Shown piece after piece: positions 14,454 through 40,955 of a DNA stretch of 42,276 nucleotides. The position numbers were made by a program, and so were the translations under genes. The notes beneath the pieces were generated by a model that did no database searches, had not been told where the DNA came from, and was given only the letters and a program-made list of their open reading frames with translations. Each line of letters starts with the position of its first letter. Positions within the stretch are counted from its first letter, which is position 1. Source of the DNA: a virus; the IMG/VR virus record IMGVR_UViG_3300045988_117550, positions 1 to 42,276 of that record; one strand, written 5' to 3'.

Positions 14454-14587
14454 TACGTAATGCAGCAGAAATGCTGCGGACGGCTGGACTCATACCCTTT
14501 CCCACTAGGGGAAAAACACACTACTTAAACGCCCTTTGTTAGTAGGGTACCCGAAAGTAAGGGGCGTTTTATCTAAAAAGGGACAAC
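14454..14587 (+). ncRNA. TR-RT spacer of the DGR RNA. It holds a GNRA-loop hairpin (14462-14477, gcagca-gaaa-tgctgc) and an 11-bp stem-loop (14527-14569) with a U-tail.
   Basis: Inverted repeats read from the sequence. No coding capacity. Confidence 0.45.
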
Positions 14588-16030
14588 ATGGTAGCAAGAC
14601 ACGGGGACGTTTGGGACACCTTTGTAAGTATGGAAAATCTGCGTTTAGGCTTTAACGACGCAATACGCGGAAGACATAGGAATAAGCAAGTACAAAAAAT
14701 ACTAAGTAAGCAAAAATACGACATTATAGGTAAGAAACGCAAAGGGGAAACAAGAGAACAATACTTAATCCGAAAAGAAAAAAGGATTACAAGATTTCTA
14801 AGGCACTTACAATTTATGCTAAATACAGGACAATACAAAACAAGTAAATACGAAACGAGAGATATAAGAGATCCAAAACCTAGGACACTTTATATCTTAC
14901 CTTTGTATCCTGATAGAATTGTGCAACAAGCCCTAGTAAGACGACTTAAACCTATTTGGGATAAGCAATTTATATATCAAAGTTACGCGTGCCGCAAAGG
15001 AAAAGGGCAACACAAATGCTCATTAAAAATATCGGAATGCGTTGCTAAATACAAGTATTGTGGGCTTACAGACATTTCAAAATTCTATCCAAGTATCCCG
15101 CATGATGAATTGTTTTCAATAGTTCAAAGAAAAATTAAAGATAAAAAAATACTGGCTTTATTAAAAGATATTATATATTCGATAGGCGGTGAAAGAAATG
15201 TGCCTATTGGCAACCTTACAAGCCAATGGCTAGGTAATCTTTATTTGAATGAATTAGATCAATATGTCGCACATGTATTAAAAATTTCGGACGCACCGAG
15301 ATATATGGACGATAAGGCGTATTTTAGTAATGACAAAAAAGAATTACGAAAAAGTTTAGAACTTATTGAAACTTTTATTTCGGAAAAATTAAAACTCAAA
15401 CTTAGTAGAAAAACTGTTTTAAGATGTGATAAAGGCGTTCCGTTTATAGGTTATCGACATTTTCCGGGCTACGTCTTGCTACGTAAAAGAACAACAAAAC
15501 GAATTAAACGTAGAATACCAACTACACAAAAAAGGTATAAGAAAAAGCAAATAACATTAGTACAGTACACTTCAACGCTTGCGTCCTATTATGGCTGGGC
15601 CAGTTTTGGTAATACATATAACTTTCGTAAAAGTACCCGCCTAGACGTTTTGCTTGAAAGCGCAAGAAATAAAATAAAGGAGGTAAAAATGCGCGGTTTT
15701 CCAAAATACACAGATATTGCAACAAAGTATGACGTGAACAATCTTAGGGCCATTTTCCCAAAAGAAACAAAACAATTCCTAGAATGTTTAAAGGGTGATA
15801 GGTTTATTTGGGAAGACAAAGGGGACATTCCGTCAATAGAAGACGGTATTGTTGACGATACTCATAAAGTTGTTGAAGTCTTAATTCAACCTACATGCGA
15901 GGGAGAAAAACCTACAAAAGAGTTACACCAATTAGAACTTATTGAAGATAAAAACGCAAGAGTATTCCGCATGGGCTATACCTTAAACGAAATAGACTCA
16001 ATTATAGAAGAATTGTCTTCGTTGTCGTAA
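14588..16030 (+). CDS. DGR reverse transcriptase with a C-terminal extension.
   Basis: RT motifs PDRIVQQAL, IGNLTSQ (the DGR-type SQ motif), YMDD and FIGYRHF. Adjacent to the TR. Confidence 0.9.
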   Translation: MVARHGDVWDTFVSMENLRLGFNDAIRGRHRNKQVQKILSKQKYDIIGKKRKGETREQYLIRKEKRITRFLRHLQFMLNTGQYKTSKYETRDIRDPKPRTLYILPLYPDRIVQQALVRRLKPIWDKQFIYQSYACRKGKGQHKCSLKISECVAKYKYCGLTDISKFYPSIPHDELFSIVQRKIKDKKILALLKDIIYSIGGERNVPIGNLTSQWLGNLYLNELDQYVAHVLKISDAPRYMDDKAYFSNDKKELRKSLELIETFISEKLKLKLSRKTVLRCDKGVPFIGYRHFPGYVLLRKRTTKRIKRRIPTTQKRYKKKQITLVQYTSTLASYYGWASFGNTYNFRKSTRLDVLLESARNKIKEVKMRGFPKYTDIATKYDVNNLRAIFPKETKQFLECLKGDRFIWEDKGDIPSIEDGIVDDTHKVVEVLIQPTCEGEKPTKELHQLELIEDKNARVFRMGYTLNEIDSIIEELSSLS

Positions 16031-18601: not shown

Positions 18602-18632
18602 TGTTACTCCTTAAATAAACACACACAATATC

Positions 18633-25923: not shown

Positions 25924-28038
25924 TTATTCAAGCCCTAAAGCACTTAAAGACATATTAGGTAATCTGAATGCGTTTGTCGTCTTTGCCTGTTTCTTATGGT
26001 AAAATTTGCCTTTTTCCCAGCCTAATTCTTTTACCATGATATGCGCAACACGGCTTAATTCTCTATTAGTCGTACGGCTTACCGTTATGCCGATACATTC
26101 TTCAAGAATTTCGCGACTTGTTACAACAGTTCTAGCCGCCCCTAATTCTAGGTCCGGTTTAGCTAACCAATCTTTTATAGGTTCTAGCCATGGATCCTGT
26201 TGTCTTCGTTTTTCTGTTTCTTCGTGTGCAATTCTCGCTATATCGTCGTCTAAATACAATTTTTCACCTCTAAAATATCTGTCGCACGCCTCCGCTAGTA
26301 ATTGTTCGCGTGCGGCTTTTAAACCCTCAATATTAACTTTTTTACACGTAACGGGCCAAAAACGTCTATTGCCTGTAACGTCTTTTAGGTATCCGCTACC
26401 CTCTTCGGGGTTGATAGTACCGATAAAGATACTTTGTCTTGGGTAATCCTCCGCATTTCTACGGTATGCAAGTCTTACACGATCAGTAGTTTTAGAAAGA
26501 AAAGACTTTAATTTATCTGTGTCAACTTTTCTACTACATACCATTTCTGATACTTCAATAATCCAATTTCCGCGCATAGCGTCAATAGTATCTTTATCGC
26601 TATCAGTTATTGAAACGTCCCCGTACCACTCACCGCCTAGAATATTTACAAGTGTACTTTTACCAATACCCTGCTCACCCTCTAAAACAAGCATAGTATC
26701 GAATTTAATGCCCGGATTAAATACTCGGCCAACCGCCCCAATAAGGACTTTAGCCCCTACGGCTCTTGTGTATGCGTTATCATCAACACCCGCAAAATCT
26801 GAAAGCCATGTATCTAAACGGCTTTTCCCGTCCCATGTAATGCTTTTTAAATAATCTCTTACGGGGTGATACCTAAACTTTTCAGCGGCAATAATAGCCG
26901 CCTCTTGGCATAACGGCGTAGAAACATTAAAAAATCTTACGCGACTTAACCAGTATTTAAAATTAATAGCGTCGGAATCAGTCCATGAGCCTAATTTTTT
27001 GCCGTTATGCCATGGCGCCGGTTTTACAAAAGTTATATCGTTTGTAAAATCGTTGTATTTAAGTATCCCCAAAAACGGATAGTCTTTGCATAACAAATAA
27101 TTTACGACATTACGGATTGTAGGCTTAATGGCATTGTTTTTATCAATGTCCCATATAAGTTTTTCAACGTCTTCCCCGACTTCGTCCTCGTCCATATCGC
27201 GGAATTGAGCAAAGTCGTTAGCTGCTGTGTTTTTTCCCACTTTATCAGCATTATAGGCATAGGCGTTATGTACTTTTTTCTTTAAGTCTTCAAGTTCCCA
27301 CTCTGGTTGGCAGCGAATATTCCAATATTCCGACATAAGCTCAAAAGTTTTCATTTCTGATAATGCCAAATCTCTGCCACGGCAAGCGGTTTTGAATGTT
27401 GTAATGTCGCCGCCCTCACCCTCAATAGCCGCTGGTGCGGTTTGCAAATATGTTATATACCTTTTTACATTCTGCTCTTCGTCAGAAAAGTCCATTTGCT
27501 TTTCTGCGAGTTCTATTTCTTGTCTTTTAATAGCATTGAGTAAGGTTTCCGGGGCTTGTATAGGTTGAAATGCGTTATTCTTTACCTCGTACGCTTTCCC
27601 TGTGTCTGGGTGAATACTACCAGCACCTACAACTTGTTGGCCAACGCTTTTAAATTCTATTCCGGGATATTCTTTTAAAGCGTTCCTTACCGGAATATCA
27701 GCGGGCTTTTTGAAATATATGTGTAGCCCATTCCCACCAGTCTTTACAACAAAAGTGTCTTTTGAAGAAAAATGTAGATCCGCGAAAAGTTTTAATAAAA
27801 CATTTTCGTCCTTTGGAAACCTGCGCGGATCTACGTCAACGATTAAGTCATCACTACGTAATACTACCCCGTAGTTCCCCTCAAAATCACATGCTTGTAT
27901 TAATGGATCATATTCAGTTTTTACCCAGTCCTTTATTGTCGGAATTTTACCATTGAGCGGTGTTAAAGTGTAGCCCGCGTCAATGTAACCCTCTATAAGA
28001 CTTTCCCTACTTAACATCACTATCCGGCTGCTCCACAT
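25924..28038 (-). CDS. DNA primase-polymerase (prim-pol) fused to a D5/P4-like P-loop helicase.
   Basis: Prim-pol DVDPRR region. P-loop EGEQGIGKST. Confidence 0.8.
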   Translation of the reverse strand: MWSSRIVMLSRESLIEGYIDAGYTLTPLNGKIPTIKDWVKTEYDPLIQACDFEGNYGVVLRSDDLIVDVDPRRFPKDENVLLKLFADLHFSSKDTFVVKTGGNGLHIYFKKPADIPVRNALKEYPGIEFKSVGQQVVGAGSIHPDTGKAYEVKNNAFQPIQAPETLLNAIKRQEIELAEKQMDFSDEEQNVKRYITYLQTAPAAIEGEGGDITTFKTACRGRDLALSEMKTFELMSEYWNIRCQPEWELEDLKKKVHNAYAYNADKVGKNTAANDFAQFRDMDEDEVGEDVEKLIWDIDKNNAIKPTIRNVVNYLLCKDYPFLGILKYNDFTNDITFVKPAPWHNGKKLGSWTDSDAINFKYWLSRVRFFNVSTPLCQEAAIIAAEKFRYHPVRDYLKSITWDGKSRLDTWLSDFAGVDDNAYTRAVGAKVLIGAVGRVFNPGIKFDTMLVLEGEQGIGKSTLVNILGGEWYGDVSITDSDKDTIDAMRGNWIIEVSEMVCSRKVDTDKLKSFLSKTTDRVRLAYRRNAEDYPRQSIFIGTINPEEGSGYLKDVTGNRRFWPVTCKKVNIEGLKAAREQLLAEACDRYFRGEKLYLDDDIARIAHEETEKRRQQDPWLEPIKDWLAKPDLELGAARTVVTSREILEECIGITVSRTTNRELSRVAHIMVKELGWEKGKFYHKKQAKTTNAFRLPNMSLSALGLE

Positions 28039-33323: not shown

Positions 33324-34040
33324 TTATGCTATTGTTTGATATTTTTCTTGCCATAGATTCAATGTTTTTTGTTGATAATCTTTTGAAGTTTTTTTCATTG
33401 AAATTTGTTTAACTTCTGGAATTGCTGCGGGTTCGTCGCTTTCGCTTGCTCTAGTTTGTTCAGAATTAAAAACGCTATAACCCTTATAATAAACTTTTGT
33501 TTTTTGTGGTTCGTCGCTTTCGTCGTCTTCTTTTTGCTTACTGAAAATAGCTAAAGTTAAATAAGTTGATTTTTCGCCCTTTTTAACTGAATTTTTAGCG
33601 GTTTTGTATTGAGCAAAAGTTGACCATAAGCAAGAAGTATAATCGTTTTCAAGTCTTTTTATTTCAAGTGTCCAGATATTCCAGCCGCTAAAATTATGTT
33701 TTGTTAGTGGGTTGCGGTGATTAGCCGGTTTTAAACCATTTTCCCAATATAAAGCAAATAGGGCGCCCTCTTGGAATACGTATTTTTTAGCCTCTTTTAA
33801 TAATTCTTTTTTGCGTGCTAACTCTTCCGGGCTTTCGTTCAAATCAACATTAACGTAATTAGAAAATGCTTTATAATTTACATCAATATTTTTTATAGCT
33901 TTTTCTAGTTGGTTGTGTATTTCCTTTAAAATTTCGTTACCCTTTTCGCCGTAAATGTCCGGGTGATACTTCTTTACAAGTTGCTTGTAAGTTGCTTTTA
34001 AATCTTCTGAAGATTTACAATTTTGAAAATAGTTTGTCAT
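33324..34040 (-). CDS. J-domain (DnaJ-like) protein with an unknown C-terminal domain.
   Basis: LKATYKQLVKKYHPD, containing the HPD motif. Confidence 0.75.
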   Translation of the reverse strand: MTNYFQNCKSSEDLKATYKQLVKKYHPDIYGEKGNEILKEIHNQLEKAIKNIDVNYKAFSNYVNVDLNESPEELARKKELLKEAKKYVFQEGALFALYWENGLKPANHRNPLTKHNFSGWNIWTLEIKRLENDYTSCLWSTFAQYKTAKNSVKKGEKSTYLTLAIFSKQKEDDESDEPQKTKVYYKGYSVFNSEQTRASESDEPAAIPEVKQISMKKTSKDYQQKTLNLWQEKYQTIA

Positions 34041-34058
34041 GTCGTCCTCACTTTCTTT

Positions 34059-34232
34059 TTATTTGTTTTTGTAATAACTGATATTTAAAATATTTTCTTT
34101 TTTACTGAAATTTATAATACATTCCCGGAGGAAGTCCGCCGCGTTTATATCCGTTCGGCCCGTTGGCGTTACTATGGAAATATTAAAGCGGTCTATTTGT
34201 TTAATTAGCTTTTTTAAATTAGTTTTTTGCAT
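34059..34232 (-). CDS. Unlisted 57-aa ORF at the 5' end of the leftward early transcript. Possibly spurious.
   Basis: Hand-translated. No SD. The ATG lies inside motif copy 8. Confidence 0.2.
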   Translation of the reverse strand: MQKTNLKKLIKQIDRFNISIVTPTGRTDINAADFLRECIINFSKKENILNISYYKNK

Positions 34233-34240
34233 TCGACAAT
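34229..34240 (-). promoter_or_regulatory. Degenerate motif copy 8 (TTGTCGAATGC on the minus strand).
   Basis: Partial match. Confidence 0.3.
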
Positions 34241-34244
34241 TATT

Positions 34245-34269
34245 CCTTATGTTTACATTCTAAACGATA
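34245..34269. promoter_or_regulatory. Operator repeat 1 (acattctaaacgataccgtttaaaa; palindrome TAAACG-atac-CGTTTA). It sits in the spacer of a leftward sigma70-like promoter: TTGACT (34275-34270), 17 nt, TAGAAT (34252-34247).
   Basis: 25-bp exact direct repeat. Hexamers and spacing read from the sequence. Confidence 0.55.
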
Positions 34270-34316
34270 CCGTTTAAAAAGTCAAGTATATAGTTAAGAA
34301 TATCGTTACAAATCTT

Positions 34317-34345
34317 AATAATAATATTGACATTCTAAACGATAC
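34317..34345 (+). promoter_or_regulatory. Rightward sigma70-like promoter: TTGACA, 17 nt, TAAAAT. Operator repeat 2 (34320-34344) lies in its spacer. It drives the HTH regulator gene.
   Basis: Consensus hexamers with a 17-nt spacer. The repeat is exact. Confidence 0.55.
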
Positions 34346-34398
34346 CGTTTAAAATAAGTATTGTAAATGGGTATTTTTGCCCGGAAAGTGAGGACAAC

Positions 34399-34638
34399 AT
34401 GAAATCTATTACAAGCCCCGACAGAGCAAAGGAAATCGAAAACCAGCTACGCGGTGTTATTGCTGCTAGTGGGCTGAATGCTACACAATTAGCGGACTTA
34501 ATAACGCAAAAATGCGGGCGTCCGGAAAGTGTTCAAAGTTTTTCACAAAAACTTAAACGCGGTTCTATTAAATACGCGGAAGTTTTAGAAATCGCGGAAT
34601 TATTAAATTTTGAATTAGTATGGCACAAATTAAAATAA
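34399..34638 (+). CDS. XRE/Cro-CI-like HTH transcriptional regulator (79 aa).
   Basis: GLNATQLADLITQKCGRPESVQSFSQ HTH pattern. SD gtgaggacaacATG. Confidence 0.7.
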   Translation: MKSITSPDRAKEIENQLRGVIAASGLNATQLADLITQKCGRPESVQSFSQKLKRGSIKYAEVLEIAELLNFELVWHKLK

Positions 34639-34648
34639 TTATAAAACA

Positions 34649-34668
34649 CGCGGGGAATTGTCCCCGCG
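34649..34668. terminator. Bidirectional terminator cgcgggga-attg-tccccgcg.
   Basis: 8-bp perfect stem, T-rich on both sides. Confidence 0.7.
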
Positions 34669-34888
34669 GTTTGTTTAATGAGTCCGACAGTATATAAAAG
34701 TTAATATATTAAGTTTTCAATGTTCGGGCGGGAATTAGCTCGCCGTGTGCTTTTCTGCTACTTTGTGCATATTGTCCGCCCGATTAGTTATCGTTTATTA
34801 TCGTTTATTATCGTTGAATTTTAAAATATATTGCGTTAATATGTAAGTAACCACGAAAAGCGTATAAGGCGCATGCCTTTTCTCGTTT

Positions 34889-34902
34889 TTTGTGTTCGAC
34901 AA
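34889..34902 (-). promoter_or_regulatory. Conserved motif copy 9 (AAATTGTCGAACACAAAAAA on the minus strand), pointing into a 220-nt noncoding stretch.
   Basis: Motif match. Confidence 0.45.
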
Positions 34903-34993
34903 TTTTATTGTACGTCTGGCCCGCTGGGGCTTGGCGTACTTTTCTTTTTTGTTATGAATCTAAATAATAAAATAGCGCAAAGTCATATACAAA

Positions 34994-35075
34994 CGGATTA
35001 CAACCGATTATAAATAACTTTGCGCTTACTTCTTTTGTAATGTTTGCTATTGTTAGCCGGATTAAAACCGATTAC
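34994..35075. repeat. Four C(C/G)GATTA sites arranged as two pairs, 10-11 bp apart within each pair.
   Basis: Read from the sequence. Confidence 0.35.
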
Positions 35076-35237
35076 GCCAAACGCTAACAAACACGCAATT
35101 TATTTTATTATTCAATTTATAACACAAACATTATATAAAATGCGCGGTTTTATGTCAATACGCTTATGAACTTTTATAAACTTATATAAAGCATATTTAC
35201 AAGCGACGCGGCGGGGCATTTGAAACGATAAAAAAGT

Positions 35238-35390
35238 CCTTACCCTCTTACCCTTATAATTTTATTTTGTGGGTAAGACTAAAAGTAAGTATATATTACA
35301 TTTATTTATAAATCTTAATAATTAAATAATCTTACCTATGTATTGGGGTAAGAATGACTAAAAAGGTAAGATAAAAGGTAAGACTAAAAA
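35238..35390. repeat. Iteron cluster with seven GGTAAGA cores: four direct copies of GGTAAGA(C)TAAAAG and three inverted copies of TCTTACC. Candidate origin of replication.
   Basis: Read from the sequence. The flanks are AT-rich. Confidence 0.5.
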
Positions 35391-36049
35391 GCCCCTAAAA
35401 TCAGTATTTTATACTATAATCTTCCATATCTTACATATAATTATATTAAATATATTATAGTAATATGGTATTTTATGGAGTATATACAAATAATTTACTT
35501 TTTTTGTAAAAAAATTTTTTTGTGTTTTTTGGGGTGAGATGTGTAAGAGAATTTTTGAGGCTAAAAAGCGGGATATTTTTTATTTGATTTAAAATTTTAA
35601 ATCTTTGTAGCTGGTTTACTCAAAAAATAAAATTTGCTCTCGCGTGTTTGTAGTTTAAAAATTTTTTTGCCCTGATTTACTCCGATTTGTGAAAGTCTTA
35701 TTTTTATATATTATGTATATCTTATTTTATATATTGTTTTCGTGTTATCATGTAAGCGTCGGAAAGTTGCTAACGCTAAAAGGCGATTTAAGACACTTGA
35801 AACCTATTAAAATATATTTTTTGTACCCTCTCGGGCTTGTTACATAATTTTTATTATGCGTACATAACGAAACGATATAAATAAAAGCCATAAACCTTTC
35901 AGGGCTTGCCTTTTGCTTTTTATATCTATGATATGTATTTAATTATTAAATGGCTTGAAACTCAATAGCCGTAAGGCTTTACAAGTTTTTATGTTGATGT
36001 GCAAAAATAAAATGCATGAGCCTGCGCACTCTGACAGTTAAAAAATGCC

Positions 36050-36135
36050 GAAACGCGAGGGGGCCCCCTTACTTTTGGCCCCATAGCGACCCCGTGGCCC
36101 CGCGTCCCTCTGACGGGTGGGGACCCCTCTGTCTT
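36050..36135. other. GC-rich island with a GGGGGCCCCC palindrome and G4/C4 tracts, set within AT-rich noncoding DNA.
   Basis: Composition contrast and a 10-bp perfect palindrome. Confidence 0.4.
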
Positions 36136-36302
36136 TTAAGCCTCCACAATTTTTGAGGATAACTAGACTATGGACTTAATAAAAAAAATACCCACAGAAA
36201 ATTTTTAGATTTTATTGTTACGATAATAAACGCAACTCAAACAAACTTAAAAAAATATTGCGAATGAACTTAAAAAGTTGAATAATGAAAATAAAATACA
36301 AT

Positions 36303-36316
36303 TTGTCGAACACAAA
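36303..36316 (+). promoter_or_regulatory. Conserved motif TTGTCGAACACAAA, copy 3, upstream of the first + arm gene.
   Basis: Exact 14-mer. Confidence 0.5.
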
Positions 36317-36334
36317 AAATTAGGAGATCTCAAA

Positions 36335-36940
36335 ATGGCAAACGTAAAAAACAAAGGTGTAAAATACACCTTCGCGGGACAGTATTACACAGGCAACAAA
36401 GAACAATCAGAACAAGTGAAAGACTATGAATTACAAGTAGTTTTTCCGCAAGTGTTTCCAAACGCTTTATCAATTTTTAAAACAAGTCTTATTAAGCAAC
36501 ACGATAGCATTTATCAAATGATGAAAAAGAAATACCCGAACTTTAAAACTGTTAGAACCTACGCAGTTACTAACATTGAAGATTTAAACGGGACATCAGT
36601 AAACACCCATAATATTGCTACTATGAATACGAAACAACTTATTAAGTACATTGAAAATAATGAGTTGGAAATAGACGCAAAAGTTTATGAGGGCAATATT
36701 ACCGGACTTCGTAACGCTATTATTCTTGCAAAGGAAGAACCGGAAAAATTTAAGGAAGTTTACGCAGCTGACGTTCAACAGTACGAGTTCAATAAGCAAA
36801 TTAACGAATTGAACGACGTACAGGGTGAGGCGGACGGACAAGCCGAACAAACCGGCGAAGTTGAAAAAGACAATGGTACAGACGAAAACGAAAAAGATAT
36901 TGACGACTTACTAGGTGAGGCGGATAAAGTTGGGGAGTAA
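36335..36940 (+). CDS. Hypothetical protein with an acidic C-terminus. The start is revised to 36335, because the motif lies inside the longer ORF.
   Basis: SD aggagatctcaaaATG. Confidence 0.5.
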   Translation: MANVKNKGVKYTFAGQYYTGNKEQSEQVKDYELQVVFPQVFPNALSIFKTSLIKQHDSIYQMMKKKYPNFKTVRTYAVTNIEDLNGTSVNTHNIATMNTKQLIKYIENNELEIDAKVYEGNITGLRNAIILAKEEPEKFKEVYAADVQQYEFNKQINELNDVQGEADGQAEQTGEVEKDNGTDENEKDIDDLLGEADKVGE

Positions 36941-37328
36941 TGTACCAATAAGAACAACGGCTATACAATGGGTAAACGGTGTACCGGAACCCATTGTAAA
37001 GCATATAACCCCTACGTCCGTAAAAACTCTTGCAACAACGGCACTATCTATGCCATATCAAGGCGAATATAACGAAGAGCTTGACATGTACATTATCGAG
37101 CCACGATTTGCAGGTATGACTAATGCAGAAGTTATGTGGATACGGACGGCAGAAAAGGCAGCGAGTGGGGACTTAGCTGCTACTAACTTAATCCTAGATA
37201 GAGTTTTAGGAAAACCAAAACAAAGTGTAGAAAGTATGTCTATGTCTATGTCTTACCCAGAATTTCTGGAATTTCTTGCAAAAAAAGAGGATAACAAAAA
37301 TGGCGGAATTGAGCCAAACGGCTATTAG
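36915..37328 (+). CDS. Putative small terminase subunit. The start is uncertain.
   Basis: Position immediately upstream of the large terminase. Helical pattern ATNLILDRVLGKP. Confidence 0.35.
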   Translation: MRRIKLGSNVPIRTTAIQWVNGVPEPIVKHITPTSVKTLATTALSMPYQGEYNEELDMYIIEPRFAGMTNAEVMWIRTAEKAASGDLAATNLILDRVLGKPKQSVESMSMSMSYPEFLEFLAKKEDNKNGGIEPNGY

Positions 37329-38889
37329 ATTAAATGAAAGACTAACTAAAGATTTCCCATTCTTTGCGAAAAACTGTTTAAAGGTTTTGAACAAAGCGGG
37401 GCAGTTAGTGCCGTTTGAGTTAAATGCGGCTCAAAAGCTCGTACACGCTCACGCAGAGGATATGCTACGCAGAACAGGCAGAGTTCGTTTGTTAGTCCCA
37501 AAAGCAAGACAGGGCGGAGTTAGTACGTACACATCTGGTAGATTCTACCATAAGAACAACCGTGTCCCTAATCGTATGACATTTATTCTTTCGCACCAAG
37601 CAAAGACTACGGACAAACTTTTTGATATGGCAGATAGATACCATGAAAATTGCCCAGAGGCAGTACGCCCGAAAGTTCTTGTAGATAACTCCCGTCAATT
37701 AGTTTTTGAAAATGGGAGCGAGTACGCCGTAGGTACTGCGGGTAGCGGTGATGTAGGTCGTGGTTTTACAATTCATCAGTTGCACTTATCAGAGGCAGCA
37801 TTTTTTGAGAATACTGATGATTTAGACACGGGTATCTTACAGGCGGTATCTGATGAACCCGGAACAGAAATTATTGTCGAGTCAACCGGTAACGGGATTG
37901 GTAATTGGTTTTACAGGGCTTGTATGGACGCATTAAAAGGTATTGGCGATTATGAGCTTGAATTTATCCCGTGGTTTGTTATGCCGGAATATAGAAGAGA
38001 ATTACCGGAGGACTTTGTTATTACGCCTGATGAACAGGATTACAAAGAGCTTTATAACCTAGACGACCAACAGATTTATTGGCGTAGAAAAAAGATTGAA
38101 ACATTAAAAAGTGAATGGAAGTTTAAGCAAGAATACCCAGCGAATATTGATGAGTGCTTTCAAACTTCTGGCGATCCGTTAATCAATACCGAAAAGGCTA
38201 TGGCAGCGCGTAAGTGTAAAATGGCTATGAACCCACAAGCCCCATTGATTATGGGCGTGGATCCAAAGGGTAGTGGTAAAGATGAGGCGGGTATAGTTTT
38301 CAGACGTGGTGATGTTATCCCCGGCTATAAATTGTATTTAGGGGAAATGGACCCTATGCGATTTGCGGGAATTTGCCAAAATCTTATCGATACAATGAAA
38401 GTAGATAAGATGTTTATTGATAACGGTTATGGCTATGCTATTGCACGTCGTATGTGGGAAAACGGATATAGAGATATTGTACAAACGGTAGATTTTTCAG
38501 AGGGCGCATTAGATCCGGACAGATTTTTAAATAAGCGTGCCGAAATGGGCGTTACCTATAAGGAATGGTTTGAAGAGGGTAACGTATCTATCCCAGACAC
38601 GGACGAGTTTTATGCGGATACGGTATGCGTCCCTCATGAAGTAGAAACATCAAACGGGAAACTAAAACTTGTCCCAAAAGACGATATAAGAAAAGCGATA
38701 GGACGTTCGCCTACTCTGTTTGACGCAGCGATATTGACGTTTGCGTATCCAGTACGCAAAGCCAATGCCAATGCTAAAGAGAGATTTAAAAAAGCGAATA
38801 CAGAGCATAAAGGCCCGTTAAAGACTTTGAACAGAACACGAAATAGCAGAATGAAAGGTAAAGAGGAGGTTTCAGTATGGCACCCTTAA
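37276..38889 (+). CDS. Terminase large subunit.
   Basis: P-loop variant LLVPKARQGGVST. Nuclease region GVDPKGSGKDEAGIV. Confidence 0.8.
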   Translation: MQKKRITKMAELSQTAIRLNERLTKDFPFFAKNCLKVLNKAGQLVPFELNAAQKLVHAHAEDMLRRTGRVRLLVPKARQGGVSTYTSGRFYHKNNRVPNRMTFILSHQAKTTDKLFDMADRYHENCPEAVRPKVLVDNSRQLVFENGSEYAVGTAGSGDVGRGFTIHQLHLSEAAFFENTDDLDTGILQAVSDEPGTEIIVESTGNGIGNWFYRACMDALKGIGDYELEFIPWFVMPEYRRELPEDFVITPDEQDYKELYNLDDQQIYWRRKKIETLKSEWKFKQEYPANIDECFQTSGDPLINTEKAMAARKCKMAMNPQAPLIMGVDPKGSGKDEAGIVFRRGDVIPGYKLYLGEMDPMRFAGICQNLIDTMKVDKMFIDNGYGYAIARRMWENGYRDIVQTVDFSEGALDPDRFLNKRAEMGVTYKEWFEEGNVSIPDTDEFYADTVCVPHEVETSNGKLKLVPKDDIRKAIGRSPTLFDAAILTFAYPVRKANANAKERFKKANTEHKGPLKTLNRTRNSRMKGKEEVSVWHP

Positions 38890-39236: not shown

Positions 39237-40955
39237 ATGGCTAGTTCAAGAATTAATAATATTTTTCAGAGATTTAAGGTTTTGAAGAACAACAAACAAA
39301 GCCTTAAATCGTTATTCCAACTAATAAGTGAGTATGTGTATAACAGAAAGTATGACGGGCAAGACATACCTAACGCGGGGATATTTGCTGATGAAGATAT
39401 TTACGACAATACGGCGCAACGCGCCAACGGTATTATGGCTAATGTTATGGTTAATAATATTTGGCCTAACGGTCCTCGTACCTTTTCTCTTGGCCGTACT
39501 TGGGATACGCCCGATACAGAAGAAGTAAAAACATATTTTTCTTACGTCAATCAGCAAATGTATTCCGTTATGGATAATACAAAAGCAGGGTTACAAACCG
39601 CACTAGATGAGTATATGCTAGATCAGGGGGCATTCGCTACGAGCGGTATTTACGTTAAGGAAAAGGAAGACGATAGGGCTGTACCAGTACGATACGAGGC
39701 GTGGAGTATAAAAGGACGTTATATTGATGAGGGCCCAGACGGGAATATAGATACTATTTTTTCTGAAATATCCATGTCAGTAAGGAATGCCGTAAAGGTT
39801 TATGGCTACGAGAACTTGTCGGCAAGAGTTAGAAAAGACTTTGACAATGGGGACATTGAAAACAAAGTAAAAATTTTACATGTTATTGAGCCTCGATTAG
39901 AAAGAGATAAAAGTAAAAAGGGCGTAAAGGATATGCCTATTGCGTCTATTCATATTGAGGTGGATACAAGAAAAATTTTAAAAGAAAGTGGTATGGAAGA
40001 AATGCCGGTATTTATTGGCAGATTTTCTAAAGTACCGGGGGAAATTTACGGACGCTCTCCGGCTATGGTGGCCATGGCTGATATTCTTGAAATAAACGCA
40101 GTCCGTGAGGCTATATCTATTGCTACTGAAAAACAACTTGATCCGCCTATGGCCGTGTACGACGACGGGGCGTTAGGAGCTGGTGCAATAGATACAAGTG
40201 CGGGGGCTATAAATGTTTTCTCTGTTACAGGTAGGTTGAATGCGGGTAAACCGATAGAACCACTTTACACCGTTGGGGAATTGCAAAGCTCTTACACTCA
40301 TATTGATACATTAAAAGAAACTATCAATAACCATTTTTACCTAGATAGATTATTGGACTTTAACAATGAAACCCGTATGACTTTAGGTGAGGCACAATTA
40401 AGGAACGCATTACGCGGTCAGTCTTTAGGTGCTTTTTATGCACGACAAGAGAATGAAGTTATTACGCCTATGATTGAAAGAACATTTAATATTCTTTTAA
40501 AATTGGGGCGCTTAGGCGTAATACAGGGGAGTAAAGAAGAAGTAGAGCAATTAAAACGTGGAATGCAACCGGTATATATTCCGGAGGAGCTTGTTCAAAG
40601 AATGATGAACGGGGAAGATTTTTATGAGATTACGTATCTTTCACCAGCAAAAAGGACAATGCAATCCGAAGAACTTAGGGGCATTATCGAAACAGCTAAT
40701 TTTGCGGTACAAGTTGCCCCGGCAAGTCCAGAAATTATTGACAATATTGACTTTGATAAGTTGATAGCCCGCGTTGCGAAATTGAGCGGTGCGCCTATGG
40801 AACTTATTAAGGATAGCGATACTGTTAAGAAGATTAGAGAGGCAAGAGCTAAGCAGCAAGAAGAAATAGCTAAAATGGAACAAGCAAGACAACAGAGCGA
40901 AATAGGGCGTAATGTTGCACAAATGAACGCTATGCAAAAACAGGAGGCGGCATAA
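39237..40955 (+). CDS. Portal protein (podovirus head-to-tail connector).
   Basis: Size. Position before the scaffold and capsid genes. Confidence 0.7.
   Translation: MASSRINNIFQRFKVLKNNKQSLKSLFQLISEYVYNRKYDGQDIPNAGIFADEDIYDNTAQRANGIMANVMVNNIWPNGPRTFSLGRTWDTPDTEEVKTYFSYVNQQMYSVMDNTKAGLQTALDEYMLDQGAFATSGIYVKEKEDDRAVPVRYEAWSIKGRYIDEGPDGNIDTIFSEISMSVRNAVKVYGYENLSARVRKDFDNGDIENKVKILHVIEPRLERDKSKKGVKDMPIASIHIEVDTRKILKESGMEEMPVFIGRFSKVPGEIYGRSPAMVAMADILEINAVREAISIATEKQLDPPMAVYDDGALGAGAIDTSAGAINVFSVTGRLNAGKPIEPLYTVGELQSSYTHIDTLKETINNHFYLDRLLDFNNETRMTLGEAQLRNALRGQSLGAFYARQENEVITPMIERTFNILLKLGRLGVIQGSKEEVEQLKRGMQPVYIPEELVQRMMNGEDFYEITYLSPAKRTMQSEELRGIIETANFAVQVAPASPEIIDNIDFDKLIARVAKLSGAPMELIKDSDTVKKIREARAKQQEEIAKMEQARQQSEIGRNVAQMNAMQKQEAA

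Follow-up and report, generated by a model that had tools for sequence, protein, structure and literature searches.

An inverted iteron array around the weakest duplex of a phage genome as a probable SaPI-type replication origin

The iteron array and its place in the genome

This work deals with the virus genome IMGVR_UViG_3300045988_117550 of IMG/VR, a stretch of 42,276 nt (hereafter the window) which is a complete phage genome assembled as a circle, and with a cluster of short repeats, or iterons, that lies there in a long noncoding region. A preliminary description had placed a noncoding candidate replication origin at 34903-36302. Its noncoding character was confirmed: no open reading frame (ORF) of 60 amino acids (aa) or more lies in 34639-36277, the short ORFs found there are not conserved, and no conserved ORF occurs in 34639-36334. 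The elements on which the argument turns are the following.

35238-35548, both strands: iteron array, with 10 GTAAG cores and two degenerate partners
35239 (-), 35247 (-), 35273 (+), 35285 (+), 35331 (-), 35348 (+), 35366 (+), 35378 (+), 35430 (-), 35543 (+): the GTAAG cores
35420-35426, minus strand: degenerate partner TCTTCCA
35533-35539, plus strand: degenerate partner GGTGAGA
35384-35532, no strand: AT-rich centre of the array and putative DNA unwinding element, a duplex-stability minimum that includes an A/T tract
25924-28038, minus strand: PrimPol-helicase of 704 aa (PF09250, PF05272), the proposed initiator

The repeat unit of the array is a 5-nt core, GTAAG, within the 7-nt consensus GGTAAGA. 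This consensus is clearly over-represented, with 16 occurrences in the window for 4.9 expected, a number reached in 0 of 100 shuffles. The cores are also strongly clustered: the densest 320 nt contain ten of them, vs. a mean of 4.2 and a maximum of 7 in 200 first-order Markov simulations, and vs. six in the best 320-nt interval elsewhere in the genome. Exact copies of GGTAAGA number six within 35246-35383, that is to say in less than 140 nt. The seven GGTAAGA cores initially described thus form a real cluster, but the seventh, at 35238-35244, reads GGTAAGG, and the GTAAG array extends further, to 35548. Likewise, two of the three inverted TCTTACC copies are exact while the third is CCTTACC, and the four direct 14-mers are only approximate, GGTAAGA being followed by (C/AATGAC)TAAAAG. 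A loose second cluster, of six GTAAG cores per 320 nt, was observed at 14557-14936 inside the reverse transcriptase gene; its flanks are inconsistent and it falls in the upper tail of chance.

The array encloses the weakest duplex of the genome. Indeed, no 60-, 100-, or 150-nt duplex in the genome is less stable than those that begin at 35405, 35405, and 35371, respectively, with a GC content of 12-17%, and the least stable 100-nt duplex (35405-35504, 14% GC) lies entirely within the array. An A/T palindrome had been reported at 35500-35525; the A/T tract is present, at 35499-35523, but is palindromic only in its inner AAAAAAATTTTTTT. The array of the window is left-heavy, with eight cores to the left of the AT-rich gap and one or two to its right.

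With regard to the genes, the genome is organized in two arms, together with a small regulator gene.

36335 through the junction to about 18600, plus strand: structural and late genes
37276-38889, plus strand: TerL
39237-40955, plus strand: portal protein of the T7 type
34232 down to 18650, minus strand: replication and early genes
34399-34638, plus strand: small regulator ORF, a 79-aa helix-turn-helix (HTH) protein with a weak DUF6471 match

The minus-strand arm encodes an ArdC-N/J-domain protein, methylases, the PrimPol-VapE helicase, an SNF2 helicase, a DUF2800 nuclease, a single-stranded DNA-binding protein of the Enc34 type, and PolA; no tRNA or tmRNA was found. The position between divergent gene arms that had been attributed to the noncoding region needs correction: the arms diverge at 34233-34398, early promoters included, and the region lies downstream of the plus-strand regulator ORF. 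The first 119 nt of the window are identical to its last 119 nt. Since a near-identical sister contig bears the name k119_153900, we attribute this terminal overlap to a k-mer artefact of a circular assembly graph, and it was rejected as a true direct terminal repeat.

No cultured phage is close to this genome. No nucleotide match was found among 50,697 phage records, either for the region or for 25 kb of the genome, and the nearest cultured relatives are about 40% identical in TerL. With TerL, the PrimPol-helicase, and the ArdC-like protein as queries, about 30 loci of a close clade were found; the scan of viral contigs with the ArdC-like protein gave one locus only. The 521-kb contig of P0069 was discarded, as it carries an unrelated SU10-like prophage that has the ArdC-like gene alone in common. 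Five relatives (L074, L075, L080, L081, and L087) are prophages integrated in Melainabacteria/Vampirovibrionia genomes. One relative, with a TerL identity of 89%, resides in a complete 2.0-Mb Candidatus Melainabacteria chromosome; others are found on contigs of 146-219 kb, where the convergent junction carries a large serine recombinase beside host genes. The hosts of the clade thus appear to be Melainabacteria (Vampirovibrionia). Prophage integration sites were seen to adjoin ArgRS or EF-G genes. Some phage contigs of 40-42 kb are binned into Elusimicrobia or Bacteroidales metagenome-assembled genomes (MAGs), probably by mis-binning. No recombinase was found in the lineage of the window, which looks lytic.

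Conservation of the iterons in related genomes had been suggested as a check, and the array indeed keeps its place and layout. A noncoding stretch of 1.4-1.7 kb with a repeat cluster, in the same place and order, is present in all the close relatives that cover the region, and the layout is kept in L003-L006, L049, L054, L055, L060, L064-66, L074, L080, L087, L089, and L090. In the close relatives, 8-14 copies occupy the densest 350 nt and start about 500-630 nt past the regulator ORF, with the exception of L091. From left to right, the shared layout comprises a pair of minus-strand copies 8-9 nt apart, several plus-strand copies, a second minus-strand pair at a spacing of 9 nt, an AT-rich gap of 93-113 nt and, finally, a pair of plus-strand copies 7-9 nt apart. 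The core itself varies by lineage: GTAAG in most, GTAAC in L055 and L031, GTGAG in L060 and L091 (where the cluster is sparse, with seven copies spread over the noncoding region), and TATAAG in L087. A constant layout with a lineage-varying core is the pattern expected for a binding site that co-evolves with its protein. Moreover, the least stable 100 nt lie within the densest repeat cluster in 11 of 12 related loci.

Over-represented motifs were also observed in the equivalent intergenic region of more distant relatives (about 45% TerL identity; L009 7853-8829, L010 7940-8762, L016 4949-6480), namely AACCGTG (six copies), AAAGCGTT (six copies), and GATTGA (eight copies), and these may be analogous arrays.

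The PrimPol-helicase and the assignment of a probable origin

The protein proposed to act on the array is the PrimPol-helicase. It comprises an N-terminal PrimPol domain of the archaeo-eukaryotic primase (AEP) type, a helicase of the VapE/SaPI-Rep type (SaPI, Staphylococcus aureus pathogenicity island), and a predicted C-terminal winged helix at about aa 638-692. Its residues 302-628 align with residues 28-360 of SaPI1 Rep1 (PDB 7PDS; phmmer, E 1.2e-52). In the AlphaFold model (predicted local distance difference test, pLDDT, 86.8), the C-terminal module is made of two helices (641-649 and 658-671) followed by two strands (675-681 and 686-692), with a pLDDT of 85-90. In line with this, chains A-F of 7PDS took ranks 1-6 in Foldseek (E 1e-27 to 1e-28, target TM-score 0.72-0.77), over 449-459 alignment columns for chains of 448-457 residues, so that the whole Rep1 chain is matched, including its C-terminal domain. 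Judging from sequence and predicted structure, the PrimPol-helicase is therefore a homologue of SaPI1 Rep. In the predicted recognition helix and the segment leading into it, four GTAAG genomes have T-N or T-Q, the TATAAG genome G-R, and the GTGAG genome G-Q, which is consistent with the PrimPol-helicase as the putative binder of the repeats.

Other initiators were looked for. No DnaA, O, or RepA-type initiator was recognized by Pfam or PHROG among the ORFs scanned, and DnaA boxes (TTWTNCACA) occur at chance level, 5 for 5.3 expected, none of them in the array.

Taken together, the excess of the array, its conserved place and layout, the stability minimum, the homology to SaPI1 Rep, and the lack of another recognizable initiator suggest that the array at 35238-35548 is probably a lytic replication origin of the SaPI type. 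The candidate origin of the preliminary description was thus supported, as the layout is conserved, the weakest duplex is enclosed, and the architecture of SaPI Rep origins is matched. From sequence, structural modelling, and analogy, we infer that the PrimPol-helicase binds the repeats and that replication starts at the array. From a mechanistic point of view, the C-terminal winged helix of this protein would bind the short GTAAG(A/G) iterons on either flank of the AT-rich centre, which measures about 100-150 nt and is bordered by copies in opposite orientations. Owing to these opposed innermost iterons, two PrimPol-helicase hexamers would assemble face to face; the paired hexamers would melt the AT-rich DNA, the weakest duplex of the genome, and the N-terminal PrimPol domain would then prime synthesis for the phage PolA.

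Several points weigh against this assignment. It rests wholly on sequence and comparison. The innermost pairs of the window (35420/35430 and 35533/35543) each consist of one exact and one degenerate copy, clean innermost pairs being present in relatives. The link between recognition helix and core, drawn from six genomes, is confounded by phylogeny, since the variant genomes are also the most divergent ones (63-68% identity). The array is located 7.2 kb from the start of the rep homologue, vs. immediately downstream of rep in SaPIs, a location which is a positional habit of these islands and not a mechanistic requirement; no GGTAAGA lies within 5 kb of the rep homologue. Cumulative GC skew, suggested earlier as a check, has its minimum as a broad plateau at 33.2-36.7 kb, compatible with an origin there, and its maximum at 18603, at the convergent gene junction; but it mirrors gene orientation, which explains it fully, so that it provides no independent evidence and cannot discriminate. 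Lastly, the late/terminase operon follows the array at a distance of about 0.8 kb, and the contigs of four relatives break in the AT-rich gap.

This last point fits with another function, that of a packaging site (pac or cos) to which the small terminase would bind, with the genome ends in or beside the AT-rich gap. The array indeed precedes the first late gene by 0.8 kb and the TerS-like and TerL genes by 1.4-1.7 kb, and the four contigs, which differ in lineage and assembler, all have an end between the inner pairs: an iteron opens L001 and L002, L028 begins just past the plus-strand pair, and L087 stops about 20 nt after the minus-strand pair. However, three contigs of the same species as the window (L064-L066) span the array intact, and the contig ends of this species cluster instead near 32.1 kb, among ORFs that vary between strains, and at the repeats of a diversity-generating retroelement. 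L087 carries host DNA at its other end, and L028 is a MAG contig with the rest of the prophage on another contig, so that these two breaks, in a prophage context, are not virion ends. The four contig ends were accordingly downgraded as physical termini, with same-species contigs crossing the region and two of the four in prophage context; loss of coverage through AT bias, strain variation of the array, or structure are possible causes of the breaks. Furthermore, the window was assembled as a circle with its 119-nt k-mer overlap elsewhere, and the TerS-like protein, 52-89% identical across lineages, does not group by core variant, although this comparison speaks neither for nor against TerS as the iteron binder. 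An origin agrees better with at least ten inverted copies around the weakest duplex and with a helicase homologous to iteron-binding ones, and we regard a packaging site as distinctly unlikely. The earlier suggestion that the region may hold the true genome ends likewise found no support, as contigs cross it, the 119-nt overlap is elsewhere, and the junctions of the prophages map to the convergent end, opposite to the region.

The contig ends just mentioned deserve a brief description. Six same-species contigs (L068-L073) stop at 3.3-4.1 kb upstream of the PrimPol gene; in four of them the end is near 32.1 kb, where small ORFs vary between strains, which points to a strain-variable hotspot. 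A reverse transcriptase (RVT_1) encoded at 14588-16030 in the window, and also in relatives L064-L073 and L089, indicates a diversity-generating retroelement, and several same-species contigs end beside its gene, presumably at the template and variable repeats.

The location of the array between the small regulator gene and the late operon could also suggest a set of operators for a transcription regulator governing the early-to-late switch, in other words a control region rather than an origin, and promoter-like sites are indeed more frequent across 33900-36500 than in shuffles (22 vs. 11.9). Yet the regulator slot, which holds an HTH protein in most genomes, is occupied by an unrelated AbrB/SpoVT-like protein in L005 (1865-2076) and L060 (3914-4144), and L005 keeps the same core as L006. 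This swap under a constant core led us to reject the small regulator as the iteron binder. In addition, a more conventional set of operators is found at 34240-34354, three terminators separate the regulator gene from the array, and the late promoter lies about 700 nt further to the right. An operator array is, in our opinion, very improbable.

Two-block arrays of short repeats also resemble the type Ib/II centromeres of plasmids, so that a partition site of the parC/parS type, serving an extrachromosomal prophage, was envisaged. This runs counter to the lack of any ParA, ParM, or ParR-like gene in the ORFs scanned or in the precomputed Pfam matches of the relatives, to the integration of temperate relatives by a large serine recombinase, and to the seemingly lytic, recombinase-free lineage of the window. 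We give almost no weight to such a centromere.

A candidate small RNA and other conserved elements near the array

To the left of the probable origin, 170-390 nt from the array, lie two pairs of C(C/G)GATTA sites at 34994, 35004, 35058, and 35068, as previously described, with a spacing of 10 nt within each pair. Enrichment of this motif in the whole genome is marginal (21 for 13.2 expected) and the local cluster is conserved in relatives. The pairs are part of a leftward unit composed of the following elements.

34967-35125, minus strand: candidate small RNA of about 160 nt, with hairpins, covariation, and a covariance model
35051-35089, minus strand: hairpin B, inside the candidate small RNA
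34974-35026, minus strand: hairpin A, a terminator followed by a U tract, inside the candidate small RNA
35130-35158, minus strand: leftward sigma70-type promoter, TTGACA-17 nt-TATAAT (12/12 match), about 80 nt left of the array and firing away from it

The sites had been read as duplex DNA sites one helical turn apart, which would suit a dimeric protein of the host or phage; indeed, C(C/G)GAYT is directly repeated at 10-11 nt in each pair, and this is conserved in all close relatives. They turned out, by contrast, to be the arms of apical CGG/CCG mini-stems at the tips of hairpins A and B. Each of the approximately 25 pairs examined combines a CGG with a CCG unit, and the two remain complementary even where they have changed places (hairpin B of L003 and L006; hairpin A of L087, L060, and L089), which points to an apical stem of 3 bp. 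The flanking stems covary, with compensatory changes in 6 of 7 pairs of the basal stem of hairpin A and in 16 of 20 pairs of the whole-unit model. Furthermore, the pairs are bracketed by the minus-strand promoter, whose near-consensus -35 and -10 boxes are kept in 11 relatives despite diverged spacers, and by the A-tract/U-tract terminator. As the A-tract on the plus-strand side of hairpin A is universal and the T-tract is not, hairpin A is primarily a leftward terminator. Phased protein-binding sites therefore seem unlikely.

Folding z-scores of -6.9 and -5.0 were obtained for this unit, and its covariance model matched 25 close-clade loci at 95-139 bits, among them two from outside the seed, L031 and L032; matches were weaker in L089 and L055 (52-59 bits) and absent from the distant clade. 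Rfam 15 gave no match at the gathering score in the window, and in 34600-36400 only a weak one to IsrM (15.5 bits vs. a threshold of 376). The leftward unit of about 160 nt is thus a candidate small RNA beside the origin and separate from the array. One could go further and imagine the two as a single unit, with the RNA priming or gating initiation by the PrimPol-Rep protein. Transcribed from a promoter at 80 nt from the iterons, the RNA would expose four UAAUC(C/G)G motifs on its two hairpins; it might, for example, offer the AEP domain a primer or a template handle, or put a brake on copy number or lysogeny. We consider this a long shot. If true, it would mean an RNA-controlled origin of the SaPI type in phages of gut Melainabacteria, a host group with, to our knowledge, essentially no characterized phage biology.

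Further control elements were found between the early genes and the array.

34327-34355, plus strand, and 34285-34257, minus strand: divergent near-consensus sigma70-type promoters, over 40-nt repeats
34814-34842, plus strand: conserved promoter, TTGAAT-17 nt-TAATAT
34853-34893, both strands: bidirectional terminator
34910-34951, plus strand: second terminator

At 34240-34354, between a 57-aa ORF and the 79-aa HTH ORF, lie two direct repeats of 40 nt, each with the palindrome AAACGATACCGTTT. This is a probable early genetic switch, located outside the noncoding region to which an early control function had been attributed. The promoter at 34814-34842 is followed within about 10 nt by a conserved leader, AACCACGAAAAGCG, and then by the two terminators, and this unit would yield a transcript of about 45 nt or act as an attenuator. 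Together with hairpin A, the terminators at 34853-34893 and 34910-34951 insulate the array from rightward transcription.

A motif, TTGTCGAACAC, usually followed by an A-run, was found in 10 copies (at most one mismatch) for 2.1 expected.

235, 17516, and 36303, plus strand: copies of TTGTCGAACAC
22742, 28256, 32164, 34229, and 34892, minus strand: copies of TTGTCGAACAC

It is co-oriented with seven transcription units, 20-45 nt upstream of their first start codon, and, where a sigma70-like promoter can be recognized, stands at about its +10 position; the copy at 34892-34902 is an orphan. It could be the operator of a genome-wide regulator or a 5'-UTR (untranslated region) RNA element. A 20-nt inverted repeat (34886-34905/36300-36319) that brackets the region consists of two opposed copies of this tenfold motif; readings of it as the terminal repeat of a transposon-like element or as a stem for RNA processing were rejected.

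Two other blocks are conserved to the right of the array. The first, at 35654-35884, is conserved in relatives and includes TTTTGCCYTGATTTACTCC and the nearly invariant TTACATAATTTTTATTAT. The second, at 36040-36137, is a GC-rich element of about 95 nt in AT-rich surroundings, nearly invariant in the close clade and located 200 nt upstream of the late promoter, in which AAAAATGCC, GGGGNCCCCC, ACCCCATAGCGACCCCGTGGCCCC, and GGGGACCCCTCTGT follow each other and precede a T-run. RNAalifold revealed no useful covariation in it, the element being almost invariant; a role as terminator, RNA, or cos/pac site for the terminase is conceivable.

Comparison with known origin systems

Origins have been mapped for very few phages, and for nearly none in the large group with primase-helicases of the VapE/Rep type. 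As the iteron layout matches that of the only structurally characterized relative, SaPI Rep, sequence by itself sufficed to assign a probable origin to this clade of uncultivated gut and rumen phages. Current views on the working of such origins are left unchanged by this. The core variants (GTAAG, GTAAC, GTGAG, and TATAAG), with the variant recognition helices, offer a natural specificity panel for DNA reading by winged helices, and the array offers a marker for phage replication in situ, by means of peak-to-trough coverage in metagenomes.

In origins of iteron plasmids and lambdoid phages (RepA, pi, TrfA, lambda O), iterons are 17-22 bp long, mostly direct, and present in 3-7 copies, and the initiators are not helicases but require DnaA, DnaB or DnaC, or lambda P. 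The phage array shares with them the repeated putative initiator sites beside an AT-rich unwinding region. Its repeats are by contrast of 5-7 nt and in both orientations, with neither an initiator of that kind nor an enrichment in DnaA boxes, in the scans given above. In the core origins of SV40 and papillomaviruses, inverted pairs of pentanucleotides next to an AT-rich tract direct a head-to-head double hexamer of large T antigen or E1. These systems are eukaryotic, with four sites only and unrelated origin-binding domains, and the likeness is one of logic and not of membership.

The satellite phage P4 is closer in several respects. Its alpha protein unites primase, helicase, and a C-terminal origin-binding domain in one polypeptide; its ori, distant from the gene, has many 8-nt TGTTCACC repeats in both orientations, and a second cis region, crr, is required. 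Primase, helicase, and presumed origin binding in one protein, short repeats both ways, and a distant origin are thus common features. Unlike P4, the phage genome contains no convincing second cluster, and the primase of P4 is of a different type.

The closest likeness is that to the SaPI systems (Rep and PriRep; PDB 7PDS and 7OLA), whose helicase is homologous to that of the phage; in these systems, Rep binds and melts its own origin specifically and without ATP. SaPI Reps are self-loading helicase-initiators that need no accessory factors, and their C-terminal winged helix recognizes penta- or hexanucleotide iterons (PMC9371898). In their origins, 6-12 iterons surround an AT-rich centre, each side having at least two, in opposite orientations, and these Reps have been likened to the SF3 (superfamily 3) helicases of SV40 and papillomavirus origins (PMC9371898). 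In SaPI5, the primase and Rep are fused (PMC9371898), and the PriRep5 protein resembles the phage protein in this respect as well. In line with this, the phage has iterons of 5-7 nt, about ten in number, on both sides of an AT-rich centre and in opposed orientations, a predicted C-terminal winged helix in its helicase, and no recognizable gene for an accessory loader. It differs in that its N-terminal primase is an AEP PrimPol domain (PF09250), that its array is longer, richer on the left, and 7.2 kb from a rep homologue that ends at 25924, instead of immediately downstream of the rep ORF, and that the replicon is a complete 42-kb tailed phage, apparently of Melainabacteria, vs. a satellite of Firmicutes. 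Most probably, therefore, this is an origin mechanism of a known type in a new setting.

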